A stretch of DNA of 17,767 bases. It comes from a virus. Lineage: Duplodnaviria > Heunggongvirae > Uroviricota > Caudoviricetes. How positions within the stretch are numbered: the stretch's first letter is position 1; every line of letters begins with the position of its first letter. The stretch lies in IMG/VR virus record IMGVR_UViG_3300039320_000013. The stretch is one strand, 5' to 3'. Shown in pieces: positions 12,001-15,000 of this stretch. Position numbers: made by a program.

Positions 12001-15000
12001 TCCACATTGGCGTGTTTTGACATGAACCCCCGGAATGTCTCTTCACCGGCTTCCCGGGCTTTACGGTACTCCCGGTACAGAAAGGCCTCATCCACTGAAT
12101 AGCCGAGATTCGGATTGACCATGGCGAGGTTTTCCATCAGCAGGTGAGCCCCGCTTTCCACCATTTCAGGAGGGTGTTCAAATATCACCGGCAGAAAGTG
12201 CGGATCATTAATTTTGCCGTCGCGCACATCCCGGGCGTACTGCAGTTTCTGTCTGAACACCCCGGCTGGCTGTTCATTCGACTGGGTGGTCGTATACACC
12301 ACAAACCCTTCCGGGCGGGAGGCAAGCCCGCCGATGGCTTCACGTAACATGTCCTCCGCCTTGTACTGCTTGCCAAACAGCCACAACTCATCAATCAGCG
12401 TCCCCACGGACTTGATACCGGACACCGTATTCGGATCGGCTGCCACCACCTTCAGGGTGGTGTCCGTCACCCGGTGGGTGATGGTCCGGATATGTGTCTG
12501 CACCTGACAGAGGTCATCCAGATCATCGTCCCGTCGTACCATATCCCTGGCAGGATTGAAGGCGTTGGCTGCCACCTCCACAGTCGGGGCCAGAATCGTG
12601 TAACCCGCCGCCTGCCGCCAGTTCAGTAACAGCGCCGTCATCATGATCCCGGCGGCCAGTGTGGACTTGCTGTTTTTTTTGGGTATCAGAATGAACACTT
12701 CCTTGATATGGCGGACACCGGTCTGCGCATCGTAGGAGCCAAACAGAGCCGCCACTAGGTCAAACACCCACTGTGCACAGGACTCCCCGAACGTCGGGCT
12801 ACCCGGTGCATCCACAATCCGCAGTTGTTTAAAAATCGCCAGGGCATGTGCGGCCTGGTCCGGATAAATCGGAGCCGGAATAATCGACAGCCCCTTTTTC
12901 AGGCGCTCTGCCCAGTCCGGGCAGGCCGTGCTCCATACAGGTATCATCCGTTGCCCTCATTATCGTTATTCACCACCAGTCGTGGTGGTGGTGGTACCGC
13001 AAAACGGTTAGCCGCTTTTTTCGCGGCATCACCTTTTGCCGATTTTTTACCGGCATCGCCTTTTTTATGGTGTGTGAACTGCGCCAGTCGCCAGGCCGCA
13101 TCCAGTGCCAGTTTCGGATCAATGCTGAGGTTTTCCACCAGGATCTGCCCCATAGCTTTCACCGGATCGGGAAGACCATCCTCCATATATTCAATACCAT
13201 GAGACATCACCGCGGGCGGTGGCATCTCCGGATTGTTTTCGTCCGGCTGTGGTATTGCAGCCGCCTCACGGCGACGGGGTTTATCCTCCTGCTCTGATTT
13301 TTTCTGCCGGTAAACAGGAACCTCATCCACCTCCACCGTTTCGCACTGTTTACGGGCTATAAACGCGAGCACCTCCGGATCTTTTGCCAGCTGCGAGCCT
13401 TTAACCCTGGCGGTCTTCGCCGAATAACCGGCGGCAATGGCTGACGCTGTTTTGTTTTTCCCGGACATGAGCGCCAGCGCAAATTTTCGTTTTTGCGTTG
13501 TCAGCACAGCCTCCTCCCGGGTCCAGAACGCACTCAGCCGGGTATGGTTCAGCCCATTTTTCCCGGCGTCTCATGCCGCAAATGTTAACTGCTGCCTGGT
13601 TAACATTTTCTGAAAAAGCCAGTTAACATTTTTTTCGCACAACAAACTGAATAATAAAGATAAAAACCGCAAAAATGCCCGGGCAGCCAGTTAACATGTT
13701 AACTGCCCTGAAACGGGAATTTTTTCTCTGCGTGAGAGGGGGCGCGGTGTCCAAAGCGATCGTTTTTTACGCCGGATGATACCCCCCCCGGGTCGGGTTA
13801 CAGTCCGATGATGTCGTCCGCTCTGCCACTACCTCCGGACACCTCCGGCAGCGTCGGGTCCGGCATACCACCCGCCGCTTCACGAGCAGACTTTTGTCGA
13901 TGGCATTCGGTACAGAGCGTCCAGAGATTCGTCTCCTCATTACCACCACCGAACTGAAGTGCAATTCGGTGATCAAGTTCACTGTCACAGAGGTCAACCA
14001 CACGACCACAGATACAGCACTGCCCGGCGTCCCTGAGCCAGATATGACGCACGTGCACTGCCACTGACACGACGCTGCTCCCCCTTCAGAATATTCACCC
14101 GTCGGGTATTCAGTGTTTTGATTCTGCTCTGGAGTGTACGAAGCTGAGCCATGTAAAATCCCCGTCATATGGCAATCAGTAAAGGAAATAAATATGTCAT
14201 CGAAAAACCGGACCCGCAGAACCACAACCCGCAATATCCGTTTCCCCAATCACATGATTGAACAGATCAACATCGCCCTTGAGCATAAAGGATCCGGTAA
14301 CTTTTCAGCGTGGGTTATTGAAGCCTGCAGGAGAAGGCTGGCAACAGATGCAACGCATCTGTTGCCCGGCCAGCATGACAAATAACGAGAAATGAACGTT
14401 CGGTTACAGGAGCAGGTACCCACCGTCCTCCAACAATATTTCATCTTCATATCCGACGGAACAAGACTTACCCTGCCGGGATGTACAGAATAACAACAGA
14501 GTGATAATTAATTTCTGATGAAATAATCAGGGTGCAGAAGGACTAAAGATAAACGTTTTCTTCACGCCTTTACACGGCCTGTCCTTCTCAAATCGCCATT
14601 TTGCCATCGCCTTTACAACCTGCTCATCAAACAAATGGTGCGGCTCTGAACGGATAAACTCAATTCGGGTGACAGTACCATCAGCACCAATATCAAACTT
14701 CACATCAACCCGTCCCTTTATATAATTTGCCGCTGCATAGGCCGGATATTGTGGTAATGCCTTAACCAACTGTCGGGGCATATCTGTTTTATGTTGCGTA
14801 CAGCCCATAACCAGAGAAGACAACAAAATAATTAACGGAAGATTTCTTTTCATTTTCATTCCCGGCACAGATAAGAATAAGTCTTATTCTAACAATGCCA
14901 CCCTGTCGATCATTAATCCTCTGCTTAATGGCAACGACAATTATCCGGCTTAAATCACAAATCAGACACATGACATAACAGGGCTTGCGAGGTAACACAT

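Follow-up and report, generated by a model that had tools for sequence, protein, structure and literature searches.

A phage-carried lipoprotein with a TonB C-terminal domain, encoded between the spanin and packaging genes of an E. coli lambdoid prophage: a possible unpowered decoy of TonB

We analyzed a 17,767-nucleotide (nt) stretch of tailed-phage DNA (Caudoviricetes; IMG/VR record IMGVR_UViG_3300039320_000013), referred to below at its full length as the window, and focused on a small minus-strand gene that lies between lysis and packaging genes and encodes a lipoprotein with a TonB C-terminal domain. In identical genomes the gene is labelled “TonB family protein” (WP_000828068.1) by the Prokaryotic Genome Annotation Pipeline (PGAP), which places the start codon at the ATG at 14853 (MKRNL) and gives a protein of 108 amino acids (aa). 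Two further in-frame starts are available, an ATG two codons before this one, at 14859, which gives 110 aa, and a GTG at position 14868, which gives 113 aa. The original prediction identified the open reading frame (ORF) correctly; its length of 111 aa and right edge of 14890 were both slightly too large, as positions 14854-14890 belong to the 5' leader. The gene and its parts are as follows.

14527-14853, minus strand: coding sequence of the TonB_C lipoprotein, 108 aa, stop codon at 14527-14529 (ORF list, sequence and PGAP).
14800-14853, minus strand: lipoprotein signal peptide MKRNLPLIILLSSLVMG and lipidated Cys18 (14800-14802), read from the sequence.
14779-14799, minus strand: tether TQHKTDM, residues 19-25, where the AlphaFold confidence (predicted local distance difference test, pLDDT) is low up to about residue 25 and then rises above 90.
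14542-14778, minus strand: TonB C-terminal domain, residues 26-104 (Pro26 to Ser104), corresponding to E. coli TonB 153-231 (Pfam, NCBIfam, PDB alignment, AlphaFold and Foldseek).

The TonB_C assignment was confirmed and is far beyond chance. The protein matched Pfam PF03544 (TonB_C) at E = 1.3e-14, with 54.8 bits against a cut-off of 24.6, and TIGR01352 at E = 1.1e-14, with 54.5 bits against a cut-off of 27.1. A phmmer search of the PDB returned only TonB chains (4e-16 to 3e-15), with a gapless alignment of residues 26-104 onto E. coli TonB 153-231, to which the protein is 39% identical. An AlphaFold2 model built with 22 family sequences as input had pLDDT values above 90 over residues 28-103, and its best PDB matches in Foldseek were TonB C-terminal domains, beginning with 2gsk_B (TonB in its complex with BtuB; target-normalised template modelling score 0.91, root-mean-square deviation 1.1 Å), then 1u07 and 2grx (the FhuA complex). 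This modelling check had been proposed in the original prediction, and its outcome agrees with the profile scores and the gapless PDB alignment in upholding the claim that the protein is almost entirely a TonB-C-like domain. The residues named in the motif string that accompanied that claim are all present, although the string had their spacing wrong. Among the homologues described below, the YP motif (TonB Y163-P164) is strongly retained, with Y36 and P37 each found in 28 of the 29 family members. Positions conserved in the family, in TonB numbering, are P161, Y163, P164, G174, V176, D181, G186, V188, P198, F202, W213, R214, E216, and P220. The BFVD viral structure library held no match at E <= 0.001, and PADLOC reported no defense-system match, only a chance-level score of 0.022.

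The N-terminus has the features of a bacterial lipoprotein, as had been claimed at the outset. A lipobox (L-V-M-G-C18) follows an n-region with K2 and R3 and a hydrophobic h-region, which agrees with the lipoprotein pattern of the PROSITE type. The lipobox is retained in all full-length homologues, including those with as little as 36% identity. The residue at +2 is Thr in the window protein; 28 of 29 family members have Ser, Thr, or Ala there. From the lack of Asp at this position, the +2 rule of E. coli predicts sorting to the outer membrane, with the protein facing the periplasm. Only 7-8 residues separate Cys18 from the folded domain, which includes both the YP motif and the β3 edge strand (residues 94-103); the chain ends five residues past β3.

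These features distinguish the protein from TonB itself. Its N-terminus is a cleavable lipoprotein signal peptide, not a membrane helix of the kind that couples to ExbB/ExbD, and it has no proline-rich spacer of the TonB type. A protein that lacks both the membrane helix and the spacer cannot be an energy transducer. The NCBIfam equivalog models for TonB (PRK10819 etc.) are consistent with this distinction, as the best of them reached 74.1 bits against a cut-off of 315 (cut-offs across the models were 265-448), and the matches were confined to ~85 positions at the end of each profile (for NF008084, positions 157-240 of 249). The chain also stops at the equivalent of TonB T235, so that the final TonB strand is missing.

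The gene is common and is under purifying selection. A copy was found by blastn with the gene in 1616 of 5426 complete E. coli genomes, as two alleles. The allele of the window (at least 95% nucleotide identity) occurs in 414 of these genomes, and a second allele, with 74% nucleotide and 72% amino-acid identity (hereafter the 72% allele), occurs in about 1200, and in the type strain ATCC 11775. Around the 72% allele of an O25:H4 strain, the genes run in the order Rz, iss/bor, the TonB_C gene, and nohD. Among deposited phage genomes, the allele of the window is carried by Stx1a-converting phages, Lys8385Vzw, and JLK-2012, and the 72% allele by phage 21 (CPT_21_73, “TonB C-terminal domain protein”), ev017, Perceval, and three ECOR-derived phages. 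Klebsiella phage ST13-OXA48phi12.4 has a 40% homologue with its own lipobox after its lysis genes; a position just downstream of the lysis genes is shared by phage 21, the Stx1a phages, and this Klebsiella phage. The ratio of nonsynonymous to synonymous substitution rates (dN/dS) was 0.12 between the two E. coli alleles and 0.10 between Klebsiella and Raoultella copies, both rough values with synonymous sites near saturation.

Disrupted copies were also observed. In the 72% allele, frameshifts and truncations lie near the WRFEK motif or earlier (P0010, P0012, P0013, P0018, P0019, P0021, and P0057), and one such cluster comprises 130 sequences. One frameshifted entry is annotated as [quoted passage not shown]. 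These copies reflect either decay in some lineages or sequencing errors at homopolymers.

In databases, members are named “TonB family protein”, “TonB fragment”, or “tonB-like membrane protein”, and full-text literature searches turned up no study on the function of a TonB_C lipoprotein, whether phage-borne or chromosomal. The gene and domain names were thus already known, while the lipoprotein architecture, the family, the pairing with a TolA lipoprotein described below, and any function are undescribed in the literature searched.

Profile and exhaustive searches extended the family well beyond E. coli. Proteins of 104-133 aa with the same architecture were found in Klebsiella, Raoultella, Pantoea, Erwinia, a record labelled Salmonella, and metagenomes. 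In a neighbor-joining tree of TonB_C domains, built without bootstrap support, 56 family sequences formed one clade with the E. coli and Salmonella TonB domains outside it. The Klebsiella and Raoultella genes occupy a fixed chromosomal locus beside lacI-lacZ and a gene for a Rick_17kDa_Anti lipoprotein. Pantoea copies lie amid metabolic genes, and one metagenomic copy adjoins a cellulose-synthase operon. The Erwinia copy (L017, 5001-5348) sits in a prophage remnant just upstream of two holin genes, with a type VI secretion system cassette (Hcp/Ntox44 toxin) on its other side. No transporter or iron genes were linked to the gene in the neighborhoods of these distant homologues. Taken together, the contexts suggest that phages mobilized one branch of a host lipoprotein family, which tempers a purely anti-phage view of the gene.

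As an observation on the chromosomal locus, the TonB_C gene in L003-L006 and L010 (4936-5853) is always preceded by the Rick_17kDa_Anti (glycine-zipper) gene and by an ORF of 123-136 aa without a Pfam match. This Klebsiella/Raoultella cluster sits between lacI and DUF1440 or hydrolase genes, and the trio may be a small envelope gene cluster.

In the window, the gene is co-oriented with the late operon, with Rz/Rz1 on one side and, on the other, a convergent YlcI/YnfO-family ORF followed by HNH, TerS, and TerL genes (an HK97-like head module). The surrounding features are as follows.

15192-15659, minus strand: Rz i-spanin, 155 aa (ORF list, a “lysis protein” annotation, and a Phage_lysis Pfam match in relative L012).
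15254-15439, minus strand: Rz1 o-spanin, embedded in Rz (ORF list).
14854-15191, minus strand: leader of 338 nt from the Rz stop to the start codon (upstream alignment), with ~250 nt conserved in both E. coli alleles.
14194-14385, plus strand: small YlcI/YnfO-family gene, convergent, between the TonB_C gene and HNH (PGAP transfer from L001; phrog_949).
12944-14152, minus strand: terminase small subunit (12944-13507) and HNH endonuclease (~13787-14152), opening the packaging module (ORF list, annotation of L001 and L015).

The GC content is 0.42-0.44 over 14450-15049 compared to 0.53-0.59 in the flanks. This dip, together with the Rz/Rz1 and HNH-terminase neighbors, supports the original description of a low-GC insert between the spanins and the packaging genes. 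In other phages the same slot between Rz and the terminase holds other cargo, e.g., Rha genes, bor/iss, or, in K-12, ybcV/ybcW.

Consensus scans of the minus strand found no sigma-70 promoter and no Fur-box-like operator, and no intrinsic terminator was found near the gene. As the scans detected neither a promoter nor a terminator, Q-antiterminated late transcription should read through the gene, judging from lambdoid architecture. A search of the whole window with Rfam was negative for RNA families. At 14874-14890, ~20 nt upstream of the start codon, lies a perfect 8-1-8 palindrome, AGAATAAG-A-CTTATTCT. Its loop is too short for a hairpin, and so it looks like an operator; it is limited to this allele and absent from the 74% nucleotide-identity allele (L016, L012), and is probably not essential for that reason.

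Expression has been reported for the other allele. In an LF82 lysogen grown in LB, transcripts of the 72% allele on prophage Perceval (LF82_160, “TonB fragment”) were 8-fold over the prophage background (PMC9928086); given this transcription in the lysogen, the Perceval allele acts like a true moron. The same lysogen also expresses NmpC, a porin encoded by Perceval (PMC9928086). Prophages with the TonB_C gene likewise have a porin gene of the ompC/nmpC type just past the Q antiterminator gene, on its downstream side (L015, 37578-38660; L016, 2633-3715), and a set of envelope-remodelling morons therefore travels together, comprising the porin, a TolA domain III lipoprotein, the TonB_C lipoprotein, Bor/Iss, and Lom.

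The TolA domain III lipoprotein is encoded in the same prophage, outside the window (~3.5 kb past its right edge) and upstream of the lysis genes (L015, 35880-36308, minus strand; also L001, 15625-16053). This protein (WP_000271630.1, labelled “cell envelope integrity protein TolA” by PGAP) is a 142-aa lipoprotein (MYCRAVPVLVLILASLTTG-C, lipobox LTTG-C, Thr at +2), and its last 89 residues make up TolA domain III (Pfam TolA at 3.8e-23; PDB 1s62 at 8e-27, aligned to TolA 333-421). Its gene was found in 897 of 5426 E. coli genomes and in only one deposited phage genome (mEp460_ev081). It shares with the TonB_C protein a lipobox, a linker, and the docking domain of a trans-envelope force transducer; it differs in having the TolA III domain and a longer linker of 35 residues. 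Domain III of TolA docks TolB, colicin A, and the g3p of Ff phages by strand augmentation.

How might an unpowered TonB domain benefit a phage? We tentatively favor, at rather less than even confidence, the reading that the protein acts as a competitive decoy of TonB against TonB-dependent phages and colicins. On this proposal, the short tether would hold the domain under the periplasmic rim of the TonB-dependent transporters of the outer membrane, where it would bind Ton-box-type strands by β-augmentation without delivering force. The strands targeted would be those of the transporters FhuA, FepA, Cir, and BtuB, or the TonB boxes of group B colicins. Competition with the scarce TonB of the cell would lower the susceptibility of the lysogen to T1, phi80-like phages, colicins, and microcins, at the price of some loss of siderophore uptake. 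The original prediction had likewise raised, as a hypothesis, an engagement of TonB boxes that would exclude phages or protect against colicins. The gene, its lipobox, the domain and fold, the position, the distribution, and the purifying selection are observed; we infer the outer-membrane location, the binding of Ton boxes, the competition with TonB, and the protective phenotype.

The proposal draws on what is established for TonB. In the TonB-FhuA crystal structure, the Ton box lies as a parallel strand on β3 of TonB (reviewed in Braun 2024), and β3 is retained in the window protein. As later papers describe the work of Howard et al. (2001), secreted TonB fragments 33-239, 103-239, and 122-239 inhibit TonB-dependent activity, including ferrichrome transport, an effect attributed to competition for transporters. 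A Ton-box pentapeptide also lowers colicin killing and phi80 infection. Given that periplasmic TonB fragments inhibit transport, a natural, lipid-tethered TonB domain without a source of energy is most simply read as a competitive decoy. The TolA domain III lipoprotein and the transcription of the Perceval allele fit a benefit to the lysogen, and this support is circumstantial.

Several points weigh against the decoy proposal. A general brake on iron uptake is costly, and no clear promoter was found for the gene. C-terminal frameshifts occur in many copies of the 72% allele, which indicates that the gene is dispensable in some lineages. Within the domain, the family varies at the equivalents of TonB R158 and Q160 and has an invariant Tyr in place of R166, Asn in place of L170, and Asp in place of E203; R204 is mostly Asp. 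We take R158, Q160, and R166 to lie near the transporter in the TonB-BtuB (2GSK) and TonB-FhuA (2GRX) structures and in cysteine cross-linking; their lack of conservation means that the partner could differ. The family is also not phage-specific, as the Klebsiella, Raoultella, and Pantoea members are chromosomal and outside prophages, and the lack of a phage, iron, or transporter link in these members suggests that the ancestral role may be a different one and argues for some function on the host side. Finally, self-exclusion through a TonB-dependent receptor was considered and set aside. The C-terminal domain of the tail-tip protein J of the prophage is lambda-J-like (46% identity to lambda J), and the known receptors of lambda-J-type domains are porins. 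A J domain of this type makes it unlikely that the prophage excludes its own kind through a TonB-dependent receptor.

Of the other explanations, one that we consider possible, if somewhat doubtful, is that the protein is an outer-membrane lipoprotein whose partner is not a Ton box, e.g., a strand of another envelope protein or peptidoglycan, and that it has a housekeeping or virulence function in the envelope like that of Bor/Iss, with phages having merely picked it up. This would suit the chromosomal, non-prophage members in several genera with their unrelated neighborhoods, the separation of the family clade from enterobacterial TonB domains, the family-specific invariant changes in helix 1 and helix 2 (R166Y, L170N, E203D, R204D), and the position beside iss/bor in ST131 (sequence type 131) prophages and phage 21. 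There is also precedent for TonB-like domains binding other proteins, such as FusB with ferredoxin (PDB 9hi3, among the Foldseek matches). However, the gene context points to no alternative partner, both elements that border the Ton-box site, the β3 edge and the YP region, have been kept, and the TolA-domain lipoprotein of the same prophage fits the logic of a decoy better. The structural arguments for a decoy apply equally to a regulatory brake that holds Ton boxes and so restrains TonB-dependent transport or surface signaling, with resistance to phages and colicins as a side effect. The fixed Klebsiella/Raoultella locus next to lacI-lacZ suggests a host-side function of this kind, but the contexts examined revealed no association with Fur-box-like sites or transporter genes and the phage copies are the most widespread, and we regard a brake as unlikely.

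A role in lysis is very improbable, despite the fact that the whole protein matches phrog_1267 (“Rz-like spanin”, lysis category) at 7.7e-43 and that the gene, which runs in the direction of the late operon, has the lysis cassette as its neighbor in elements from E. coli, Klebsiella, and Erwinia. The window already encodes a complete pair of Rz and Rz1, the fold is a globular TonB fold with neither a C-terminal membrane helix nor the proline-rich region of an o-spanin, the 72% allele on Perceval is transcribed in the lysogenic state, and the chromosomal members have no lysis genes nearby. On the grounds of the separate spanin pair, the globular fold, and the lack of a C-terminal hydrophobic helix, we rejected the reading of the protein as a lysis accessory or spanin. 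The phrog_1267 label is most likely a positional mis-annotation and will propagate into phage annotations. There is scarcely any likelihood that the gene is a functionless, decaying fragment of a captured host tonB, as implied by the records that say “TonB fragment” or “truncated TonB-like” and by the many frameshifted copies. Identity to host TonB is only 39%, the acquired lipoprotein signal peptide is conserved across genera, dN/dS is 0.10-0.12, intact orthologues occur in many genera and phages, and transcription of the 72% allele in a lysogen is on record. Conservation and selection together effectively refute this last explanation.

Comparison with known systems helps to place the proposed decoy. 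The C-terminal domain of E. coli TonB (153-239; 1U07, 2GSK, 2GRX) has the same fold, the YP motif, the equivalents of the aromatic core F180/F202/W213/F230, and β3. It differs in belonging to a protein with an ExbBD-coupled helix and a proline-rich spacer and in having the last strand, whereas the window protein is predicted to be lipid-anchored in the outer membrane. Engineered periplasmic TonB fragments, those of Howard et al. (2001) and of Kopp and Postle (ompT(ss)-TonB33-239), are likewise TonB C-terminal domains in the periplasm without energy coupling. Those constructs are artificial, soluble, overexpressed, and derived from the host, and the window protein is a diverged natural phage product with a lipid tether; inhibition by it is proposed by analogy with them.

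Among phage proteins, Llp of T5 and Cor of phi80 and N15 are also small lipoproteins, located at the inner leaflet of the outer membrane and acting from the periplasm on a TonB-dependent transporter. Each of them inactivates one receptor, FhuA, whereas a decoy for Ton boxes would affect TonB coupling in general. No homology of the window protein to Llp or Cor was found, as Pfam gave only TonB_C and TonB_2 and the PDB folds matched were TonB domains. Bor/Iss is likewise a lambdoid outer-membrane lipoprotein moron in the slot between Rz and cos, and its gene adjoins the TonB_C gene in phage 21 and ST131 prophages; however, Bor/Iss is unrelated in sequence, lies on the opposite strand, and functions in serum resistance.

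The TolA domain III lipoprotein suggests a general phage strategy of decoying the force transducers of the envelope. In a wider form of the proposal, which we put forward as a speculation with a modest chance of being correct, lambdoid prophages would carry unpowered outer-membrane decoys of both the TonB and the TolA docking domains, giving the lysogen a broad tolerance to group A and B colicins, microcins, and Ton- and Tol-dependent phages. Such a pair would capture Ton boxes, TolB, colicin strands, and phage ligands of the g3p type at the outer membrane and, if confirmed, would be an exclusion class distinct from the receptor-blocking Llp and Cor.

The prevalence of the gene gives these proposals a practical side. 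About 30% of complete E. coli genomes carry it on prophages, including those of ST131, other extraintestinal pathogens, lysogens of Shiga-toxin phages, and the Crohn's-associated strain LF82. If TonB coupling is damped in these strains, their sensitivity to TonB-dependent phages would be altered, which is relevant to phage therapy and phage typing, as would their sensitivity to colicins and microcins, which matters for competition in the gut, their acquisition of iron, and their response to siderophore-antibiotic conjugates (“Trojan horse” drugs of the cefiderocol type). The protein would also be a natural counterpart of the inhibitors of the TonB-transporter interaction that are now being designed.

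Two further observations were made elsewhere in the window. In the holin-lysozyme interval, a DUF1327/YdfR-family gene is apparently split into ORFs at 16566-17051 and 17066-17488; the 161-aa ORF of this region covers only positions 140-296 of phrog_1085, and in close relatives PGAP annotates the neighboring piece as an incomplete YdfR-family protein. The region 6651-9073 holds a 353-aa ORF and a 454-aa ORF with a 4-nt overlap; in close relatives it is annotated as a single “frameshifted” portal protein. These ORFs could be a real pair of portal and protease genes that was mis-called by PGAP, or the product of a true frameshift.

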